Positions 4,535 through 12,897 of a stretch of 64,000 nt of DNA are shown here, piece after piece (the stretch's first letter is position 1; each line of letters starts with the position of its first letter). The notes below the pieces were generated by a model. That model made no database searches, was not told where the DNA came from, and saw nothing but the letters and a program-made list of their open reading frames with translations. The stretch comes from Candidatus Marinacidobacterales bacterium (GTDB lineage Bacteria; Acidobacteriota; Vicinamibacteria; Marinacidobacterales; DATDRI01), in assembly GCA_965226495.1 (NCBI GenBank), contig OZ245365.1:3008001-3072000 (forward strand), in the 5' to 3' direction. Position numbers and translations under genes: made by a program.

Positions 4535-5662
4535 ATGCCTTATACGCGTAGGTCGTTCCTAAGAAGCCTTGGCGCCACGGCCGCATTCGCCCACTCGGCC
4601 CGCGCGCATGCGACCGTGAGTAGTGAGCTCGAAGAGCTCCTCTCGAAAAGCATTGTCATCGACGCCCTATCTTACTTGCACCGCAACCCGGATGTTCGGG
4701 GGGCGGACCATTCGACGCTGGATCTGCCGATGCTCGAGGAGTCTGGGATCACGATGGTCAGCCCGACCACCGACCGTCGGACGGCTAGCCCCGACGGCGC
4801 CTATCATGACGCGCTGAAGCGTCTGGCCGAGATTCAGAGCATCGCAGCCCGTTATCCGGACCGCATGATGCTGATACGCACCGGCTCCGACATCGAGGCC
4901 GCTAAGAGAGAGAACAAGGTCAGCGCCCTCCCCAACTTTCAAGACACCACCGCCATCGGGACCGACCTCTCGAACCTCGACGTCCTCTTCGATCTCGGCG
5001 TCCGCCAAATTCAGCTCACCTACAACTGGCGGAACCTGGTGGGCGATGGTTGCTTGGAGAGAACCGGCGCCGGCTTGAGCTACTTCGGAGTCGAGCTCGT
5101 CGAGCGAATGAACGAACTGGGGATCGCAGTCGACGTCTCCCATAGCGGGCACCAAACGAGCATGGACGCTATCGAGGCCTCGACCAAGCCGATCTTGTTC
5201 ACGCATACCAACTGCAAGGCCATCTACGACCATCCTCGCAACAAGTCCGACGAGGCGATTAAAGCTCTCGCGAAAAAGGGCGGCGTGGTGGGCATGACGC
5301 TCCTAAGCTGGTTCATCAGTGAAAACTCGCCGTCGACGCTCGATGACCTGCTCGACCATTTTGATCACGTCATTCGTCTGGTAGGACCGGACCATGTTGG
5401 TATCGGCTCGGACATGGGATTGCCCGGCTGGCGCGTGACCGAGCCTGATCAGATCTGGGAAGCCGTGAAAAGCGGCTACTCCGCCCGTTCCTGGGACCTG
5501 GTGCGTCCCAAGTACCCTCCGTTTATCGCGGCCATCAACGACGCGCGTCGCTACCTCACCATCGCCGAGGGCCTACAAAGACGCGGACACTCGCTCACCG
5601 ACATTCAAAAGGTTCTGGGGCTCAACTTCCTTCGAGTCTACAAGGAAGTTCTTCCCAGCTAG
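4535..5662 (+). CDS. Tat-exported membrane dipeptidase family (peptidase M19) protein
   Basis: TRRSFL Tat signal; QLTYN, VDVSH, THTNC, HPRNKSD and GIGSD motifs. Confidence 0.88.
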   Translation: MPYTRRSFLRSLGATAAFAHSARAHATVSSELEELLSKSIVIDALSYLHRNPDVRGADHSTLDLPMLEESGITMVSPTTDRRTASPDGAYHDALKRLAEIQSIAARYPDRMMLIRTGSDIEAAKRENKVSALPNFQDTTAIGTDLSNLDVLFDLGVRQIQLTYNWRNLVGDGCLERTGAGLSYFGVELVERMNELGIAVDVSHSGHQTSMDAIEASTKPILFTHTNCKAIYDHPRNKSDEAIKALAKKGGVVGMTLLSWFISENSPSTLDDLLDHFDHVIRLVGPDHVGIGSDMGLPGWRVTEPDQIWEAVKSGYSARSWDLVRPKYPPFIAAINDARRYLTIAEGLQRRGHSLTDIQKVLGLNFLRVYKEVLPS

Positions 5663-5707
5663 CCCACTTTCCTACGCGATCCTCTTCAGGACGAGCTGCG
5701 CCGTCGA
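5658..5707. repeat. Left copy of 50-bp degenerate direct repeat flanking the metal-efflux cassette
   Basis: 42/50 identical to 12404-12453; the minus strand reads STAQLVLKRIA*, a second 3' end of the 12418-12867 gene. Confidence 0.85.
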
Positions 5708-5720
5708 GCGCTAGTCTAGG

Positions 5721-5749
5721 TTGACTTCGGCAGTGGTGCCAAGGACAAT
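5721..5749 (+). promoter_or_regulatory. Putative sigma70 promoter; transcript would be essentially leaderless for the ORF at 5758
   Basis: TTGACT-N17-GACAAT; ATG lies 8 nt after the -10 element; no clear SD. Confidence 0.55.
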
Positions 5750-5757
5750 AAGGCGCC

Positions 5758-6195
5758 ATGCGTTGCCGACTGTTTCCGATCGTGATTGCCAGTCTCCAAA
5801 TCGCCGCGCTCATCCTCTTCTCCGTCCTCACTCCTCTTGCCCATCTCCACCAGAGCGGCACGGCACCGTCGCATTTTCGCCAGGTCGGCGCGGGCCACGA
5901 AGCCCATCCCGCAGCCACTTTCCACTCGCACTTTGAAGATCACCACGCAAGTGAGGACCACGGTCGGGACTCCGATGGTGACGACGCGGAAGACGCGCTC
6001 AGCCTTTCGCACGGCAAGATCGACGCGCCGCGCGTCAAGCAGTCCGACGAGCAGCCGCTGGTCGTCGCATCGAGTATCGAGGCCGCTCGCCCCTCGACCC
6101 AGGCGTCTTGGGCCCTATCCGTTCCGAGCCAAGACGCCCACGGGCCGCCCCATCCCTTTCTAATACCAGCCCGCGCTCCCCCCTCCTTCTCCTAA
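5758..6195 (+). CDS. His-rich leader protein with N-terminal hydrophobic segment and C-terminal RAPP motif (DUF2946-like architecture; candidate arrest peptide)
   Basis: Signal/TM segment, 13 His residues, ends ...PARAPPSFS*; directly upstream of the efflux operon. Confidence 0.75.
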   Translation: MRCRLFPIVIASLQIAALILFSVLTPLAHLHQSGTAPSHFRQVGAGHEAHPAATFHSHFEDHHASEDHGRDSDGDDAEDALSLSHGKIDAPRVKQSDEQPLVVASSIEAARPSTQASWALSVPSQDAHGPPHPFLIPARAPPSFS

Positions 6196-6280
6196 CGAGC
6201 TGCAAGTCTGCCTTCGTCAAGGCAGGCATTCTTCTTGTTTCCACGCCCATCCCGGGCTCGCCGCCCGGATCGGAAGGAGG
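6182..6280 (+). promoter_or_regulatory. Candidate attenuator: anti-SD CCTCCTTC (6182-6189), hairpin 6206-6227 with U-rich tail, and SD GAAGGAGG (6273-6280)
   Basis: Perfect 8-bp complementarity between 6182-6189 and 6273-6280; CTGCCTT-cgtc-AAGGCAG stem. Confidence 0.55.
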
Positions 6281-6283
6281 CGC

Positions 6284-7624
6284 ATGTCCACAAAGTTAAC
6301 GTTCGAACGAGGTTTTGGAGCAGCCCCTCGTAGAAGACTGGGTTCGCTGCGGCCGGGCCCTCTCATCCTCGGGATCCTGTTCACTGGAACCGTCATCCCA
6401 TCGGCCCGGTCGCAAGAGCCATTCCGACGGGTAACACTCGAACAAGCGCTCCAGATGTTTGAGGAGAACAATCTCGAGCTCCGTTTGGTCATGGCCGAGC
6501 GGGACGCGGCGGCCGGCCTCGCCCGGCAAGCCAGGGCGCACCCGAACCCAGTGGCCACGGTCACGCATGAAGGCCTGTCGGAAAGTGGCGCGGACTACTC
6601 AGAAAGTTATTTTCTGGCCAGCCAGCGCTTGGAATGGCCTGGCCACCGAGACGGGCGGATCGCGAGCTCGGACGGGGAAGCTGCCGTTGCCAGAATCCGC
6701 GCGGACGCCGAACGCCTGCGACTGACATTCGAAGTCAAGCGGAGCTTCTTTCAGGCAGCGGCTGCCGAAGAGCAGCTCGTCGTTATCGAAGGAGTCCGCG
6801 ACGTTTTTCGCACCGCGGAGGAAAGCGGTGGCCAGCGGTTTCGAGAAGGCGACCTCTCGGGCTACGACGCTCGCCGAATTCGAATCGAGCGAGCACGTTA
6901 CGAGATCCTCGCGGCGTCCCAAACGATCGCCCTCCGCAACGCCCGACTCTTGTTCGCCTCCCTCGTTCTCTCCGACTCTTCCGACGAAGGGCCTCCCAAC
7001 GTTGCGCCCTCCGCAGTGCCGGAGGGCTCTCCGCCTTCCATCACGGATCTCGACGAAGAAGTGGCCATCGAGCACGCTTTCGAACGGCGGGGCGAGATGC
7101 GAAGCGCCAAGGCGCAGATAGCCGCTGCCGAAGGCTCCGTGCGTCATCGTTCCTCCTTGCGTTACCCCGACGTGACCCTGACGGGGGGCTACAAAAGGCA
7201 ATCCGACGGTTTCGACGGTTTTTTCGTGGGAGCAAGCCTCCCTGTTCCCGTTTTTGATCAAAGGCAGGGCGATGTCGAAGCCGCCGAGGCCCGACTTCGC
7301 ACCGCAAACGCGCATTTCGCTCTGACGCAACGTACCGTCGCGAACGATGTCCGAAGAACCTTCTCCACGTATCTATCCCTCTCCGAACGCGCCGCATTGA
7401 TCCGTGACCAGCTTCTGAGCGGCGTCGACGATTTGCTGCTTATCGCGAGAGTGAGCTATGGCGAGGGTGAGATGTCGCTCTTGGAGCTCCTCGACGCCGC
7501 GAAGGCATATCGCGAGTCTCAGATCGCTTTCTCGGAGCTGACGTCGGAGCTCTGGATTCGTTACTACGACCTGGAACGGGCAATGGGAGGATTTTCATCC
7601 GTTTCATTGGAGGACCAACCATGA
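6284..7624 (+). CDS. TolC-family outer membrane efflux protein (CzcC-like)
   Basis: Outer-membrane efflux repeats, LPVPVFD, YGEGEMSLLELLDA; strong SD; operon context. Confidence 0.9.
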   Translation: MSTKLTFERGFGAAPRRRLGSLRPGPLILGILFTGTVIPSARSQEPFRRVTLEQALQMFEENNLELRLVMAERDAAAGLARQARAHPNPVATVTHEGLSESGADYSESYFLASQRLEWPGHRDGRIASSDGEAAVARIRADAERLRLTFEVKRSFFQAAAAEEQLVVIEGVRDVFRTAEESGGQRFREGDLSGYDARRIRIERARYEILAASQTIALRNARLLFASLVLSDSSDEGPPNVAPSAVPEGSPPSITDLDEEVAIEHAFERRGEMRSAKAQIAAAEGSVRHRSSLRYPDVTLTGGYKRQSDGFDGFFVGASLPVPVFDQRQGDVEAAEARLRTANAHFALTQRTVANDVRRTFSTYLSLSERAALIRDQLLSGVDDLLLIARVSYGEGEMSLLELLDAAKAYRESQIAFSELTSELWIRYYDLERAMGGFSSVSLEDQP

Positions 7625-9141
7625 AGGCCATAACGGCAATGAAGGCGATTGGGCCCCGACTGCTGGCCCTTACCATGTTGGTCCTCGCGACGAGCATGGT
7701 AGCGTGCCGGGACCAAGCGTCGTCCAGCGAAGCAACGGAAGACCACGAGCACGGTGGCGGGGCGGCGATCACACTTTGGACCGAGAGCGTCGAGCTCTTC
7801 TTCGAGCATCCGCCACTGATCGCCGGAGAGCCCGGGGAGCCCTGGGGCATCCACCTAACCTTTCTCGATGATTTTCAGCCAGTGCGAGAGGGCAAATTGA
7901 CGCTCCGTTTCGTCGGAGCGAATCGAAGCGAGCACGCGGCTGTCGCGGAAGCTCCGGCACGAGAGGGCATCTTCACACCGGCTCCCTCGCTAGCCGATGC
8001 CGGCGTATACCGTCTATCGATGACGCTCGAAAGCCCGAGAGGTGTTAACGAGATTCCCGTCGGTGACATCACCGTTTTCGCATCGAACGCCGAGCTTCCC
8101 CACCTGGAAGAAGCCTCCAACGCGGGCATCTCGTTTCTCAAAGAGCAGCAGTGGACGATCCCCTTCGCCACCGCTCGAGCCACCGAGCGAAACATCGCGC
8201 ACTCGATCGCCGCCAACGGTGAAATCCTCCCCGTGCCGACCGCCATGGCGCGCGTGAGCGCGCCGGTCGAGGGTCTTGTTGGGGAAGAGCGCGACCTGCG
8301 GACGCCCATCCCCGGTACCTGGGTGGAAGCGGGTGCGCCTCTGGTCGTTTTATCTCCGGTGCCTCAGGAAAACGCCTTTGCCGCCCAGCGCGCGCGAGTC
8401 CAACGGTTGGAACGCGAAGTAGCGCGTGCGGAACGGCTGCACGCCGCAGAGGCCATCCCTGAGAAGCGGCTGGTCGAGGCGCGCCATGATCTGGCCGTCA
8501 GCCGCGCCGCGCTCAACGCCGTGGGAGGGAGCAGCGAGGATGGATATGCGCTGACGCTGCGGGCCCCCATCAGCGGTCTCGTCATCGAACGAAATGTGAC
8601 CCTTGGCGAGCGGGTGTCGGCCGGTGAAGTGCTCTACACCATCGTGGATCCCAGCACCATGTGGGTCCGCCTTCAAGTGCCCGCCCGCGAGGCATCTCGC
8701 GCCTCGGAGGCCACCACAGCATCATTCACCGTGGAAGGAAACGCGCGACTTTACCAGTCCGAGCGGATCGTCTCGGTGGGAGCTGTCATCGATCCGACAC
8801 GGCGAACGCTTCCGGTGATCGCCGAAGCGCGGAATCGAGACGGAAGTTTGAAGGTGGGCATGCTAGTCGAGGGGCGGCTCTTCCTTGCCGAGACGGCCCC
8901 TGGTATTGCGATCCCAAGCCGCGCCGTCCGCAACGAGGACGGCCTGAACGTCGCCTACGTGCAACTCGGCGGCGAGAGTTTCGAGCGCCGAGTGCTCACG
9001 CTCGGGCCCTCGGATGGTGAGTGGACTCAGGTAATGAACGGCCTCCGCCCCGCGGAACGCGTGGTCACCCAAGGTGCCTACCAGGTTCGCCTGGCGTCGC
9101 TCAACGCCGCGGAGATCGCGGATCACGGACATCCTCACTAG
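7621..9141 (+). CDS. RND efflux periplasmic adaptor (CzcB/CusB-like lipoprotein)
   Basis: Lipobox SMVAC, LRAPISG, His-rich termini (DHEHGG, DHGHPH); ATGA overlap with the TolC gene. Confidence 0.9.
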   Translation: MKAITAMKAIGPRLLALTMLVLATSMVACRDQASSSEATEDHEHGGGAAITLWTESVELFFEHPPLIAGEPGEPWGIHLTFLDDFQPVREGKLTLRFVGANRSEHAAVAEAPAREGIFTPAPSLADAGVYRLSMTLESPRGVNEIPVGDITVFASNAELPHLEEASNAGISFLKEQQWTIPFATARATERNIAHSIAANGEILPVPTAMARVSAPVEGLVGEERDLRTPIPGTWVEAGAPLVVLSPVPQENAFAAQRARVQRLEREVARAERLHAAEAIPEKRLVEARHDLAVSRAALNAVGGSSEDGYALTLRAPISGLVIERNVTLGERVSAGEVLYTIVDPSTMWVRLQVPAREASRASEATTASFTVEGNARLYQSERIVSVGAVIDPTRRTLPVIAEARNRDGSLKVGMLVEGRLFLAETAPGIAIPSRAVRNEDGLNVAYVQLGGESFERRVLTLGPSDGEWTQVMNGLRPAERVVTQGAYQVRLASLNAAEIADHGHPH

Positions 9142-9262
9142 CAGCAGGCTGGTGAAAAAGAGGACCCAGCCTGCGCGAGCGGAGCGAGCCCGGCCCGAGT
9201 GGGCCGTTGAGGCCGCGCGAGGAGCGCGGCCAGCGAGCGAACGAGGAGTGAGCGAGCACTAA
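9139..9262 (+). repeat. Structured intergenic repeat, copy 2
   Basis: CAGGCTGG...CCAGCCTG stem, then TGCGCGAGCGGAGCGAGCCCGGCC and GCGAACGAGGAGTGAGCGAGCACTAA. Confidence 0.8.
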
Positions 9263-9276
9263 AGATGGAACCCAAC

Positions 9277-12200
9277 ATGTTGGATAGGATCATTCGGTGG
9301 TCTCTGCAGAACCGGCTGGTGACGCTCTTTGGAGCAGGGGCGGTGCTGGCCGGCGGTATCTATGCCGCGGCGACGATTCCCATCGATGTGTTTCCCGACC
9401 TGACCGCGCCTACGGTCACCGTTCTGACCGAGGCCCACGGCATGGCCGCCGAGGAGGTCGAGCTCTTGGTCACATTCCCTATCGAGACGGCAGTGAATGG
9501 CGCCGCCGGTGTCAGGAGAGTGCGCTCGTCGTCCGCTCAGGGTATCAGCATCGTCTGGGTCGAGTTCGACTGGGGGGAGGAGATCTATCGGGCGCGTCAG
9601 ATCGTGGGTGAGAAACTTCAGACGCTGACCGCCCAGCTTCCCAGCGGGATTGGTCCACCGGTTCTCTCCCCCATTACTTCCATCATGGGCGAGATCTTGC
9701 TGGTAGGCATCACGAGTCGCCTGCACTCTCCCATGGAAGTCCGAACCGTTGCCGACTGGACCGTTCGCAAGAGGCTACTCGCTGTCCCCGGCGTGGCGCA
9801 GGTCGTTCCGATCGGAGGGGCCGTCAAGCAGTACCAAGTGCTGGTTCACCCCGCACGACTTGGGCTCTACAAGGTCGGGCTCGATGAGGTACTTTCTGCG
9901 GCCGAGCGTTCCAACGCCACCGCGTCGGGAGGTGTCTATCTAGACAGCGGACAGGAGATCCTGATCCGGGGCCTGGGCAGGGTGCGGACGCTTGAAGATA
10001 TCGAAAAGACCGTGGTGGGCCTCGCGGACGGCGTGCCGGTTCGTATCGGTGATGTCGCTGACGTGAAAATAGGCCCCAAGCCTCGCTTCGGCACCGCTTC
10101 GGTGAACGCCGAACCGGCGGTCGTCCTCTCCATCCAGAAACAGCCCAGTGCGAACACATTGGATCTCACCGAGCGGATCGACGAGGAGCTCGTCCGCCTG
10201 CAGAAAACCCTTCCCGAGGGAATGGAGATCGACCGTGGGATCTTCCGGCAGGCCGACTTCATTTCCCTCGCGATCGACAACGTCGTCGCCGCGCTCCGCG
10301 ACGGTGCTCTTATGGTGGTCGTCATCTTGTTCCTCTTCCTCTGGAACTTTCGCACCACTGCCATTTCCGTTCTCGCCATTCCGCTCTCGCTCGCTATCGC
10401 CGTCATCACCATGTTGCTGCTCGGAATCACCATCAACACTATGACCCTCGGCGGCATGGCAATCGCCATCGGGGCGCTGGTAGATGACGGGATCATTTTC
10501 GTCGAGAATGCGTTTCGACGCCTTCGGGAAAACTGGCACCTTCCCGAGAGCGAGCGGAAGGCGGCGCTTTCAGTTGTTTATGATGCGGCGAGAGAGATCC
10601 GCGCACCAATCCTCAAAGCAACCGTCATCATCTCCATTGTGTTCGTTCCCCTCTTCTTCCTCTCCGGAGTGGAAGGCCGTATGCTCCAGCCTCTGGGCTT
10701 CGCTTACATCGTCAGCATTCTGGCATCCCTGGTGGTAGCGGTTACCGTGACTCCGGTGCTCAGCTTGTTCCTCCTCACCGATGCCCGCTTTCTGGGTAAG
10801 CAGCGAACGAGCTGGCTGGAGGAACACTCGAAGCGGGCGTATTCGCGGGCGCTAAAGGTCGTCATGAGACATCCCAACGCGGTGACGTTTGCTGCGGCCC
10901 CGCTGGTGGTGGCGACCCTCGCCGTCTTCCCTTTCTTGGGACGGGGCTTCTTGCCGGAGTTCCAAGAGGGAACGCTCACTGTCTCCGCGGTGACCACGCC
11001 TGGAACGGGAATCGATGAGTCGGACGAGCTCGGTCGTCTGGTCGAACGAAAGATGCTCCAACACCCCGCTGTCGTTTCCACGGCGCGACGCACCGGTCGC
11101 GCCGAGCTCGACGAGCACGCCCAAGGAGTGAACGCCGCGGAGATCGACGTGCTTCTCGATCCGTCCAAAGGAGAGCTCGCCGAGATCATGGACGAGCTTC
11201 GAACTCGTCTCGCCGCCGTTCCCGGAACCAACATCACCATCGGTCAACCCATAGGCCACCGCATCGATCACATGCTCTCCGGCACACGCGCCGCGATTGC
11301 GGTCAAGATCTTTGGACCGGATCTCCATGAGCTCCGCCGCGTCGCGGAATCTGTGCGGGAAGCAATCCAGGATGTACCGGGGGTGGTCGACTTAGCGGTC
11401 GAGCAACAGGCCGACGTGCCGCAGCTTCGCATCGTGGCGAACCGTGACGCCATGAGCAAATACGGGGTCACACCCGGAAGCCTCGCCGATACGATCGACG
11501 TCGCCTTCTACGGTGAGCCAGTGAGTCAAGTGCTGGAGGGACAAAGTGCCTTCGATCTGGTGGTCCGCTTCGATGAAGCACACCGTGGAAGTGCGGAGAA
11601 AATCAGGAACGTCGTTTTGGGTACGCCGCTCGGCGTACAAGTCGAGCTGGGCTGGCTTGCCGAGATCTCGGAAGGTCGAGGGCCGAACAACATCAGCCGT
11701 GAGAACGTTCAGAGAAAAATCGTCGTGCAATCGAACGTGAGCGGCAGAGACGTGGCGAGCGTCGTCGAAGATTTCCGTCGCAACATTGAAGCGAGTGTCG
11801 TTATTCCGGACGGCTACTATGTAGAGTACGGTGGCCAGTTCGAAAGCGGTGAGGCCGCCGCGCGCGCGATCACCATCCTTTCTGCAGTGTCCATTCTCGC
11901 TATCTTCCTTGTTCTCTATCAGGAGTTCCACAGTGCCCGGACGGCCGCCCTCATCATGGTCAACCTACCTCTAGCACTCATTGGCGGGGTGGGGGCATTG
12001 GTCGCCTCGGGAGGCATGCTGAACGTGGCGTCCCTGGTCGGCTTCATCACGCTTTTCGGCATCGCGGTGCGAAACGGGATCCTGCTGGTGAGCCACTACA
12101 ACCGCTTGATCTCCGAAGGCGAACCTCTCCGAGAGGCGGTCTTCCGCGGTTCGCTCGAACGGCTAAACCCGATCCTGATGACGGCCCTCACCACCGCACT

Positions 12201-12381
12201 CGCGGTGATTCCCCTCGCTATCGGCGGTGGCGAGGCAGGCAAAGAAATCCAGGCCCCGATGGCCGTCGTCGTTCTGGGCGGACTTCTGAGCTCGACCGCG
12301 CTGAACATGGTGGTCGTGCCGGCCCTCTTCCTACGTTACGGACGACCTGCCCGAGCGGCAGACGTGCTCGGCGATGCGTAA
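9277..12381 (+). CDS. CusA/CzcA-family heavy-metal efflux RND permease (alternative start 9265)
   Basis: PIDVFPDL, EEVELLVTFPIE, GALVDDGIIFVEN, RTGRAELDEH and RLNPILMTA motifs; ~1035 aa. Confidence 0.93.
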   Translation: MLDRIIRWSLQNRLVTLFGAGAVLAGGIYAAATIPIDVFPDLTAPTVTVLTEAHGMAAEEVELLVTFPIETAVNGAAGVRRVRSSSAQGISIVWVEFDWGEEIYRARQIVGEKLQTLTAQLPSGIGPPVLSPITSIMGEILLVGITSRLHSPMEVRTVADWTVRKRLLAVPGVAQVVPIGGAVKQYQVLVHPARLGLYKVGLDEVLSAAERSNATASGGVYLDSGQEILIRGLGRVRTLEDIEKTVVGLADGVPVRIGDVADVKIGPKPRFGTASVNAEPAVVLSIQKQPSANTLDLTERIDEELVRLQKTLPEGMEIDRGIFRQADFISLAIDNVVAALRDGALMVVVILFLFLWNFRTTAISVLAIPLSLAIAVITMLLLGITINTMTLGGMAIAIGALVDDGIIFVENAFRRLRENWHLPESERKAALSVVYDAAREIRAPILKATVIISIVFVPLFFLSGVEGRMLQPLGFAYIVSILASLVVAVTVTPVLSLFLLTDARFLGKQRTSWLEEHSKRAYSRALKVVMRHPNAVTFAAAPLVVATLAVFPFLGRGFLPEFQEGTLTVSAVTTPGTGIDESDELGRLVERKMLQHPAVVSTARRTGRAELDEHAQGVNAAEIDVLLDPSKGELAEIMDELRTRLAAVPGTNITIGQPIGHRIDHMLSGTRAAIAVKIFGPDLHELRRVAESVREAIQDVPGVVDLAVEQQADVPQLRIVANRDAMSKYGVTPGSLADTIDVAFYGEPVSQVLEGQSAFDLVVRFDEAHRGSAEKIRNVVLGTPLGVQVELGWLAEISEGRGPNNISRENVQRKIVVQSNVSGRDVASVVEDFRRNIEASVVIPDGYYVEYGGQFESGEAAARAITILSAVSILAIFLVLYQEFHSARTAALIMVNLPLALIGGVGALVASGGMLNVASLVGFITLFGIAVRNGILLVSHYNRLISEGEPLREAVFRGSLERLNPILMTALTTALAVIPLAIGGGEAGKEIQAPMAVVVLGGLLSSTALNMVVVPALFLRYGRPARAADVLGDA

Positions 12382-12403
12382 GCGGGCCGGGCAAACATTC
12401 TGC

Positions 12404-12453
12404 GCTAGCCCACTTCCCTACTCGACCCGCGTCATCACCAGCTGCGCCGTCGA
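12404..12453. repeat. Right copy of 50-bp degenerate direct repeat
   Basis: 42/50 identical to 5658-5707; overlaps the 3' end of the 12418-12867 gene. Confidence 0.85.
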
Positions 12454-12867
12454 CGGCAGGTCGATGGTGACTTTGTCGCCTTCGACTCGATACTTAGCCC
12501 CGTCGAGGCTCGCCTCCGGCCCGTACCAAACCTCCGTCTCTTGAAACTCTTTCTTCGGATCCATGTGGAGCTCCATCTCCACCACCATGCTGATGGTATC
12601 CGGACCGGTGATTTCGTAGGTGCCGTGGTGCGCCTCCGCGAAGTCTTGGTTCCGTGGGTCACGGTTGAAGAACATGACGTGGAGCCAATGTTTCTTACCG
12701 AACATCATATAGCCGCTGGTTTTGTAACGGACTTGGCTGTCGGCTTTGACGTAGGATTCCATCGACCAAGTCCCTTCCAAATCCAGATTCCCACTCTCTC
12801 CGACCCCTACTCCGATACCAATCGCTACGAAGGCGAGAACCACCGCGAGCGTTACTATTCTCTTCAC
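12418..12867 (-). CDS. Small secreted protein, possibly lipocalin-like beta-barrel
   Basis: GTG start after GAGGAGG; signal peptide; LEGTW motif; last gene of the long minus-strand run. Confidence 0.7.
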   Translation of the reverse strand: MKRIVTLAVVLAFVAIGIGVGVGESGNLDLEGTWSMESYVKADSQVRYKTSGYMMFGKKHWLHVMFFNRDPRNQDFAEAHHGTYEITGPDTISMVVEMELHMDPKKEFQETEVWYGPEASLDGAKYRVEGDKVTIDLPSTAQLVMTRVE

Positions 12868-12897
12868 TTCATCCTCCTCGAAGTTTAGTTGCAACTC

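Follow-up and report, generated by a model that had tools for sequence, protein, structure and literature searches.

Background

CutF, encoded in Rhodobacter capsulatus cutFOG and described as a member of DUF2946, is a nascent exported copper sensor (PMC9973294), for which metal has been reported to prolong the ribosomal stall and to induce the downstream gene (PMC9973294; preprint 10.1101/2025.02.05.636593). A second DUF2946 protein, CruR (Bp2923) of Bordetella pertussis, carries CXXC 45 residues before a RAPP motif, with copper relieving the arrest and leading to Rho termination (PMC9426467); this regulation is RAPP-dependent, and the arrest has been toeprinted (PMC9426467; PMC12992588). The present analysis concerns a small open reading frame (ORF), here termed the leader, that heads a heavy-metal efflux resistance-nodulation-division (HME-RND) pump operon in a Candidatus Marinacidobacterales bacterium of the phylum Acidobacteriota, within 64,000 nucleotides of contig OZ245365.1 (assembly GCA_965226495.1, positions 3,008,001 to 3,072,000; hereafter the window, from whose first letter all coordinates are counted). 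On balance, we favour reading it as a leader that regulates in cis and belongs to the same functional type as CutF and CruR, in which a metal-tuned ribosome arrest would open expression of the pump.

Among 5,334 CutF-like proteins, the commonest downstream neighbour is the outer-membrane efflux protein (OEP) of an RND system; His-only CutF-like clusters also exist, situated beside HupE/UreJ genes and not pumps, and CzcI, CusD and SilD have been placed in the CutF-like network (Ozturk et al., PMC9973294). The motifs RAPP and RGPP have been described as cores giving robust arrest refractory to elongation factor P (EF-P); they show enrichment towards the C-terminal end of small membrane or secreted proteins whose genes precede metal genes, RAPP-like motifs being otherwise avoided in proteomes (PMC12992588). 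Upstream ORFs with RAPP or RGPP precede diverse genes, metal genes included, and two arrest peptides of Streptomyces lividans with conserved Cys or His are encoded before metal-related genes (Fujiwara et al., PMC12992588).

A conserved leader ending in an arrest motif

The leader ORF (P0001) begins with ATG and encodes 145 residues, including 13 His and one Cys without a CxxC motif; RAPP occupies codons 139–142 and is followed by S-F-S and the stop codon. Its features, with conservation taken from an alignment of 17 family sequences (A3), are as follows.

5758..6195, plus strand: leader ORF, with a hydrophobic N-terminal helix, a His-rich region without predicted structure and a C-terminal arrest motif; the frame is open in all relatives
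5770..5838, plus strand: predicted signal-anchor or transmembrane helix, residues 5–27, helical in the AlphaFold2 model and preceded by R2 and R4
5842..5850, plus strand: H29-L-H31 motif at the outer end of the helix, H29 and H31 at least 90% conserved in A3
5920..5946, plus strand: F-H-S-H-F-E-D-H-H, residues 55–63, the core His motif and candidate metal ligand site, H56 and H58 invariant in A3
6139..6183, plus strand: C-terminal segment HGPPHPFLIPARAPP, ending in RAPP (6172–6183), with P131, R139, P141 and P142 invariant

An original prediction made from the letters of the window had described a 145-residue ORF with a hydrophobic N-terminus, 13 His, no CxxC and RAPP three codons from the stop, all of which is confirmed; the start it gave, 5721, is that of the −35 hexamer TTGACT, the ORF itself beginning at 5758. 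Segment HGPPHPFLIPARAPP is the part of the chain that would sit in the exit tunnel during an arrest at RAPP. The mean column identity of A3 is 46%, with H56, H58, P131, R139, P141 and P142 its invariant residues and H29 and H31 nearly so.

Relatives were counted as 33 distinct sequences, mostly from Marinacidobacterales metagenome-assembled genomes (MAGs), with RNA and promoter features counted over 21 distinct loci. A word-indexed protein search returned one relative at 74% identity; of 41 related genomes searched in six frames, 10 matched at E ≤ 5e-19, one of the 10, the unpublished genome G007, being left out of the alignment with no other result resting on it; and a metagenome scan added 17 further leader loci. 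As a profile search of 1.84 billion protein representatives yielded 11 proteins only at E ≤ 1e-3, the family is small. The public records of relatives are MAGs, assigned to Candidatus Marinacidobacterales (7) and Acidobacteria bacterium (1).

A survey of homologous cassettes, which the original prediction had proposed, finds the motif kept, as RAPP in 31/33 distinct sequences and as RGPP in the other two; this sole substitution, Ala to Gly, preserves the arrest property, RGPP being likewise a robust EF-P-refractory core. Exactly three residues follow the motif in 31/33, CxxC is absent from 33/33, and the distance from xHxH to the Arg of RAPP or RGPP is 78–84 residues throughout the 33. The leader family thereby has the sequence characters of RAPP-type arrest peptides, namely a RAPP/RGPP core, a conserved segment adjacent to it upstream, and a C-terminal position in a small membrane or secreted protein. 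Within the genome, RAPP occurs in the last 10 residues of 45 of the 57,007 stop-to-stop frames of at least 60 residues, and the permuted motif APPR in 46, so that a single RAPP occurrence means little and it is conservation across relatives that carries weight. Among frames of up to 260 residues ending in RAPP/RGPP in the genome, the leader has the highest 19-residue hydropathy (2.42) in its N-terminal stretch; the other such frames lack the combination of helix and His and look like chance occurrences. No paralogues of the leader were found in the genome. Variant forms of the leader in the databases (P0008, of 265 residues, P0010 and P0014) include one called with a 116-residue N-terminal extension, one with 11 residues after RAPP and one with a single residue there.

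Differences between relatives, summed by codon position, number 230/186/335, with third positions varying most in 8/8 pairs, a pattern expected of a translated ORF and by which the leader is judged to be translated. DNA conservation is highest at the end of the ORF, in its last 54 nt, for at least seven of the eight pairs compared, and in no pair does this segment tie with the promoter-distal body. Between the window and locus L009, nucleotide identity is 64% in the leader body and 91% over the first 300 nt of the OEP gene. Because the body diverges faster than the pump while the 3′ end is best conserved, the profile is that of a regulatory leader and not of a folded protein. The same comparison with L009, taken in segments, gives 64% for the body (5758–6140), against 94% for the tail, 88% for the spacer and 91% for the start of the OEP gene; the low identity of the body points to its fast evolution or to recombination near its 3′ end.

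AlphaFold2, given the 17-sequence alignment, predicted the helix of residues 5–27 and no other secondary structure (mean predicted local distance difference test score 59.9). Arg and Lys residues precede the helix in A3, which by the positive-inside rule would orient it with its N-terminus inside and its C-terminus outside. The leader protein had no Pfam or NCBIfam match at E ≤ 1, and the A3 profile had no match among solved structures at E ≤ 10. The closest clusters in the ESM Atlas consist of hypothetical proteins without a name, most commonly from Nitrospirota, one cluster carrying DUF6769 on 35% of its members; no member of the leader family matched such a Pfam model.

The leader directly precedes the genes of a tripartite efflux system.

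6284..7624, plus strand: OEP (TolC/CzcC/CusC-like), 446 residues; PF02321, E = 2.2e-37
7621..9141, plus strand: periplasmic adaptor (CusB/CzcB-type), 506 residues; PF16576, E = 6.1e-24; TIGR01730, 121 bits against a cut-off of 94.9
9265..12381, plus strand: HME-RND permease (CusA/CzcA family), 1038 residues; TIGR00914, 823.9 bits against a cut-off of 701.45

With the permease above the TIGR00914 cut-off and the OEP and adaptor encoded in the same operon, these genes constitute an HME-RND tripartite system. An OEP gene lies directly after the leader in 14/14 complete relatives, and the second gene downstream encodes an HlyD_D23/CusB-type adaptor in all five relatives tested.

The apparently export-type N-terminus, the conserved His motifs and the constant place ahead of an HME-RND operon would also suit a membrane-anchored or periplasmic His-rich accessory protein, in the sense of CzcI or CusF, that buffers, chaperones or signals in trans and in which RAPP has no regulatory role; the CutF-like cluster that contains CzcI, whose gene precedes czcCBA, lacks the proline motif, and CzcI is regarded as a metal-sensing regulator (PMC9973294). 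For the present family this is improbable: the helix is the only predicted structural element, the pump evolves more slowly than the leader body, and conservation peaks in the last ~15 residues and the last 54 nt. The only substitution in the motif, Ala to Gly, keeps a known arrest core, and the distance from motif to stop is fixed at three codons in 31/33, for a kind of motif that proteomes avoid (PMC12992588).

The combination of an N-terminal hydrophobic helix with a C-terminal RAPP is, moreover, the general architecture of monitoring substrates (PMC12992588), so that the leader could, like SecM, ApdA and ApdP, monitor secretion or insertion, the pull of Sec/YidC on the helix releasing the arrest and the pump reporting insertion capacity or envelope stress instead of metal. 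We consider this very improbable, as the downstream genes encode a metal pump and not sec or yidC, the helix lies ~110 residues from the arrest site and would have finished inserting well before RAPP, and the invariant His residues and fixed 78–84-residue spacing have no role in such a model. The reading as an arrest leader is well supported by the comparative evidence, the arrest itself being predicted.

Promoter and start of translation

A promoter is recognised immediately upstream of the leader.

5721..5749, plus strand: sigma-70-like promoter, TTGACT (−35), 17-nt spacer, GACAAT (−10), with 9/12 consensus matches

Its −10 element ends 8 nt before the leader ATG, and two promoter-like sites were found against 0.1 expected in shuffles. 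All 21 distinct loci share the order TTGAC[TA], 17–18 nt, NANWWT, 7–9 nt and an in-frame start (ATG in 3, GTG in 18), and because this promoter-to-start spacing is kept, the leader mRNA is probably leaderless or nearly so; the comparison thus lends good support to what the original prediction had called 'probably leaderless'. Within the first 40 codons, no other in-frame start is present in four of the seven listed loci (L004, L006, L007 and L008), and one or two further candidates occur in L001, L002 and L003.

Small shares of the 64-kb stretch were contained in two metatranscriptome runs. In one, a single 198-nt contig corresponds without mismatch to 5782–5979 in the leader body, the rest of 5000–12600 being uncovered in that run; the other contributed one contig, 5474–5679, within the upstream dipeptidase gene. 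Such contigs show no starts, ends or strand and could derive from DNA carry-over, and the uncovered pump genes are not evidence either way; the contig in the leader body is a weak hint of transcription at most.

Spacer RNA between leader and pump

The stop codon of the leader and the ATG of the OEP gene are separated by 88 nt in the window and by 86–103 nt across loci, an interval that, together with the end of the leader ORF (the tail), contains the following elements, SD denoting the Shine–Dalgarno sequence.

6182..6189, plus strand: CCTCCTTC, complement of the SD, in the stretch that a ribosome stalled at RAPP would cover; predicted to pair with the SD in the window (probability 0.93–0.95)
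6206..6240, plus strand: hairpin 2 (6206–6227, 9 bp, −14.1 kcal/mol) and a pyrimidine/U-rich tract, terminator-like, ATTCTTCTTG following the stem
6252..6268, plus strand: hairpin 3 (CCGGGC...GCCCGG), just 5′ of the SD; its closing pair (columns 101/126) has two-sided change in 10/21 sequences
6273..6286, plus strand: SD GAAGGAGG (6273–6280) and OEP ATG (6284); GGA[AG]GG and ATGTCC are conserved in the alignment

CCTCCTTC is the exact reverse complement of GAAGGAGG, and the SD ends 3 nt before the ATG at 6284. The minimum free energy fold of 6160–6300 joins both 8-mers at −46 kcal/mol, against a shuffle mean of −36.3 (z = −2.59), and 2/200 shuffles folded as well; the in-silico fold that the original prediction had proposed as a check therefore returns the pairing in the window. 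A complement of at least 8 nt to the 16 nt before the ATG arose within the 31-nt stall footprint in 119/5000 dinucleotide shuffles, and one anywhere in 186 nt in 879/5000.

Across the family, the picture is different. An exact complement of at least 6 nt to the SD region lies within the stall footprint in 7/21 distinct loci, the pairing probability of tail and SD exceeds 0.6 in 8/21 and is about 0 in most others, and an RNAalifold consensus on nine loci did not return the pairing. Elsewhere the SD is predicted to pair with CUUCCGA in the L-F-R codons 5′ of the stall, or with UUUCC after the U tract. The pairing of an anti-SD with the SD was accordingly tried and rejected as a family-wide mechanism, on the counts of complements (7/21) and of pairing (8/21), the negative RNAalifold result and two-sided change in 1/8 pairs. 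Tail:SD pairing is, as far as these sequences tell, a feature of a lineage and not of the family, and an anti-SD mechanism is plausible for the lineage of the window only, where it is not statistically secure. Of the original prediction's anti-SD switch, the 8-nt complementarity and the pairing fold stand for the window and conservation across homologues fails (7/21 loci); of its wider claim of a RAPP stall leader, the conserved and translated ORF, the invariant arrest motif and the place at the head of an HME-RND operon are borne out, and the anti-SD control as it was stated is not.

The spacer elements kept across loci are a hairpin after the stop codon, a tract rich in pyrimidines and U, another hairpin ahead of the SD, and the SD itself together with ATGTCC. 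The first hairpin, present in the window as the nine pairs at 6206–6227 and noted with its U-rich tail (6206–6240) in the original prediction, starts 10–16 nt after the leader stop in 21/21 loci, with 6–9 U in the next 14 nt. No Rfam covariance model, such as that of the NiCo/czcD riboswitch, matched 5500–6500 on either strand at E ≤ 1. Leaders with a terminal Cys, those of the lineage of L010–L016 and related loci, have a small hairpin made up of their final codons, the stop codon, which occupies the loop, and the GCAAG after it (for example, UUGC-UGAGAG-GCAA); the purine-rich segment that follows could pair with the U-rich tract instead, giving a relay of alternative hairpins.

Hairpin 2 and its U-rich tract, recurring as they do in all 21 loci, would also fit a control of transcription, in which arrest at RAPP determines RNA polymerase readthrough at 6206–6240 or access of Rho, as in CruR or TnaC, and decides between a leader-only and a full transcript. 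The stem is strong (−13.8 to −15 kcal/mol) and directly before the tract in eight loci, the window included, and the RNA-library contig 5782–5979 falls inside the leader, a weak hint at most. We hold this alternative to be unlikely. The stem has −9.9 kcal/mol in one locus and is weak (−2.1 to −7.0 kcal/mol) in 12/21, where the U-tract mostly lies 5–6 nt beyond it, and the terminator-like pattern (6206–6237) is at chance frequency, with one found against 0.9 expected in shuffles. As a ribosome at RAPP would end near 6193, ~13 nt short of hairpin 2, and no antiterminator alternative was found, there is no clear route from stall to hairpin 2; a structured spacer of 88 nt is, furthermore, short for Rho loading, the CruR spacer measuring 162 nt (PMC9973294).

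Proposed mechanism

In the mechanism that we favour, a metal-tuned arrest opening pump expression, the leader would be translated from a leaderless mRNA and probably inserted co-translationally through its N-terminal helix, which would place H29/H31 and F-H-x-H (residues 55–58) in the periplasm. The conserved C-terminal segment and RAPP would then arrest the ribosome with the Pro141 codon (6178–6180) in the P site and the Pro142 codon (6181–6183) in the A site, an assignment that follows toeprints on ApdA, ApdP and CruR (PMC12992588). At that point the helix would long since have been inserted and the His motifs would lie 80–110 residues back, outside the membrane, where a divalent metal bound to them may alter the duration of the arrest. 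The ribosome parked over ~6163–6193 would refold the 88-nt spacer (tail, hairpin 2 with the pyrimidine tract, hairpin 3 and SD), and the OEP, adaptor and RND genes might then be translated, and perhaps transcribed through, at high periplasmic metal. In its simplest version, for the lineage of the window, the stalled ribosome would cover CCTCCTTC and so free the SD; because the SD partner differs in other lineages, the conserved principle would be arrest-dependent refolding and not one pairing. The direction would be that of CutF, metal prolonging the stall and inducing expression, which is sensible for an efflux pump.

Folding predictions are in part consistent with this scheme. The SD is predicted to be paired in the free mRNA in 21/21 loci (unpaired probability ≤0.28), and blocking the region of the stalled ribosome together with everything upstream raises its unpaired probability to at least 0.25 in 10/21 loci, from 0.02 to 0.35 in the window.

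Several points weigh against the proposal. Blocking the ribosome site leaves the SD unfreed in silico in the other 11 of the 21 loci. Occlusion of the SD is modestly above that of dinucleotide shuffles (mean unpaired probability 0.08 versus 0.20), with 6/40 shuffles at or below the observed value in the window and at least 1/40 reaching it in every locus. A ribosome at the stop codon predicts an SD accessibility identical to that with a ribosome at RAPP, so a stall-specific effect is not demonstrable in silico; given the shuffled-upstream and stop-codon controls, folding neither proves nor excludes an SD-unmasking switch. In the tail:SD helix, 80% of cells can pair, with two-sided change in the single pair of eight already given, neither side being free to vary in any case, since one holds Pro/Ser codons and the other the SD. 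The 'SecY vestibule' geometry of CutF is not simply transferable, the spacing being ~80 and not 45 residues, and kinship with the experimentally tested proteins is not established, since DUF2946 is not matched. Finally, it is the conservation of the parts that has been observed; arrest, metal dependence and the direction of regulation are what we infer, the direction having been guessed from the function of the pump.

Pump and genomic neighbourhood

Against the Protein Data Bank, the permease scores 485.8 bits with CusA and 482.7 bits with ZneA and, being equally close to both, does not allow the metal of the pump to be named. The adaptor (P0003, 7621–9141) is His-rich at both ends, with EDHEHGGG near residue 40 and ADHGHPH at the C-terminus, stretches that suit a His-liganded divalent metal better than Cu(I).

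The neighbours in the window encode an M19 dipeptidase, an HhH-GPD glycosylase, a TPR protein and amidohydrolases, with no regulator among them, and no MerR, ArsR or two-component metal regulator was found among these or among 30 upstream ORFs in 10 loci. This bears out, in wider scope, the earlier remark that the cassette encodes no transcriptional metal regulator: no conserved one is located nearby. The 30 upstream ORFs differ between loci and include one TetR-family gene (L011) and one GerE-domain gene (L029); because they vary, the conserved unit starts at the leader promoter. Integrase (rve), DDE_3 and ISL3 transposase genes are found up to 3 kb upstream in 3/10 loci (L009:1304-2269, L010:1573-2115 and L016:778-2052), and as they adjoin the cassette while the other upstream genes are unrelated between loci, leader and pump may be mobile as a unit.

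Between the adaptor and RND genes lies a GC-rich spacer (9142–9264) in which GCGAGC-like units recur. Summed over contigs, the depth there rises from ~5–10 to 125–137 in two DNA runs, with many contig breaks, and one contig joint skips 39 nt (9194 to 9234); the spacer looks like a short repeat dispersed in these metagenomes. A convergent ORF of 158 residues (12418–12894, minus strand), hydrophobic towards its N-terminus and without a match in Pfam, follows directly on the RND gene and delimits the cassette on its 3′ side.

Implications

Were the proposal true, nascent-peptide metal sensing would extend from the copper- and Cys-motif-based DUF2946 proteins of Proteobacteria to a His-based family of Acidobacteriota controlling an RND pump. 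The fixed spacing of ~80 residues, set beside the 45 of CutF and CruR, would offer a handle on how a ligand signal is transferred from outside the membrane to the peptidyl-transferase centre. 'Hypothetical proteins' of ~145 residues encoded before HME-RND operons should then be read as regulatory leaders, and a missing regulator gene beside such pumps would not imply constitutive expression. The general idea, including the induction of a detoxification gene, is already published, so that the gain would lie in breadth and in a variant, not in the principle. Induction as the opposite logic to CruR, which the original prediction had offered as new, is already the published logic of CutF, for CutF-like genes before OEP/RND genes included (PMC9973294).

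Comparison with known systems

Membership of DUF2946 was considered and rejected. None of 17 family members matches PF11162 (DUF2946) at E ≤ 10, P0001 itself having no Pfam hit at E ≤ 1, and a six-frame search for DUF2946 gave no match in genome G000 and, across the 41 related genomes, nothing above the cut-off. DUF2946 is rare in the phylum, with 3/301 genomes over the cut-off; aligned by hhalign with a shallow alignment (A4) of four acidobacterial DUF2946 hits, three of them over the cut-off, A3 gave a probability of 4.4%, only the helix and the first His being aligned. The leader family shares with DUF2946 proteins a C-terminal RAPP and the first place in a metal operon, and lacks CXXC/CxxxC and the 45-residue spacing; the rejection thus rests on the missing PF11162 match, the hhalign probability, the absent Cys motif and the different spacing.

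The likeness to CutF is that of a small, probably exported leader directly before a metal-detoxification gene, with a short structured spacer and a shielded SD, and CutF-like genes most often precede OEP/RND genes (PMC9973294). The two differ in the ligand motif (CxxxC in CutF, His-only xHxH here), in the distance between sensor and stall (45 residues against 78–84), in the arrest motif (proline-rich in CutF, strictly RAPP/RGPP here) and in the target (a multicopper oxidase against an HME-RND pump); the mRNA here is also probably leaderless, the phylum is Acidobacteriota, and similarity to DUF2946 is not detectable. With CruR, the leader shares what appears to be an export-type N-terminus, the first position in a metal operon and RAPP near the C-terminus (here residues 139–142 of 145), whereas CruR represses an uptake receptor across a 162-nt spacer and the present leader precedes an efflux pump at 88 nt.

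ApdA, ApdP and the S. lividans arrest peptides are likewise small membrane or secreted proteins, encoded upstream of the regulated gene, in which the core motif is close to the C-terminus and adjoined on its N-terminal side by a conserved segment, while SecM has the core RAGP, unlike the RAPP/RGPP found here. The tested arrest peptides monitor Sec/YidC or precede other types of gene, none in the published accounts drawn on here preceding an RND operon or having this His motif. Compared by description, CzcI, CusD and SilD of Cupriavidus metallidurans resemble the leader as products of small genes directly before czcCBA, cusCBA and silCBA, CzcI differing in that it is reported to lack a C-terminal proline motif (PMC9973294). 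Searches of the full-text literature gave no description of a His-only RAPP leader, whether preceding an RND pump or occurring in Acidobacteria, the supplements of PMC9973294 lying outside that coverage.

A more specific proposal, advanced tentatively, is that of a separate family without a Pfam model, comprising His-only nascent-chain sensors with an invariant xHxH 78–84 residues from RAPP/RGPP that would form, with a leaderless promoter and the pump, a self-contained, regulator-free cassette, would be switched on by a periplasmic divalent cation of the Zn/Ni/Co/Cd type and not by Cu(I), and would possess a longer 'ruler' between sensor and stall. RND efflux would then be under arrest-peptide control by a metal other than copper, a control of separate origin from DUF2946. 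From the comparison as a whole, the leader family most likely functions in the manner of CutF and CruR, with no demonstrable membership of DUF2946, and probably represents a new family within an already described class of nascent-peptide metal sensors.

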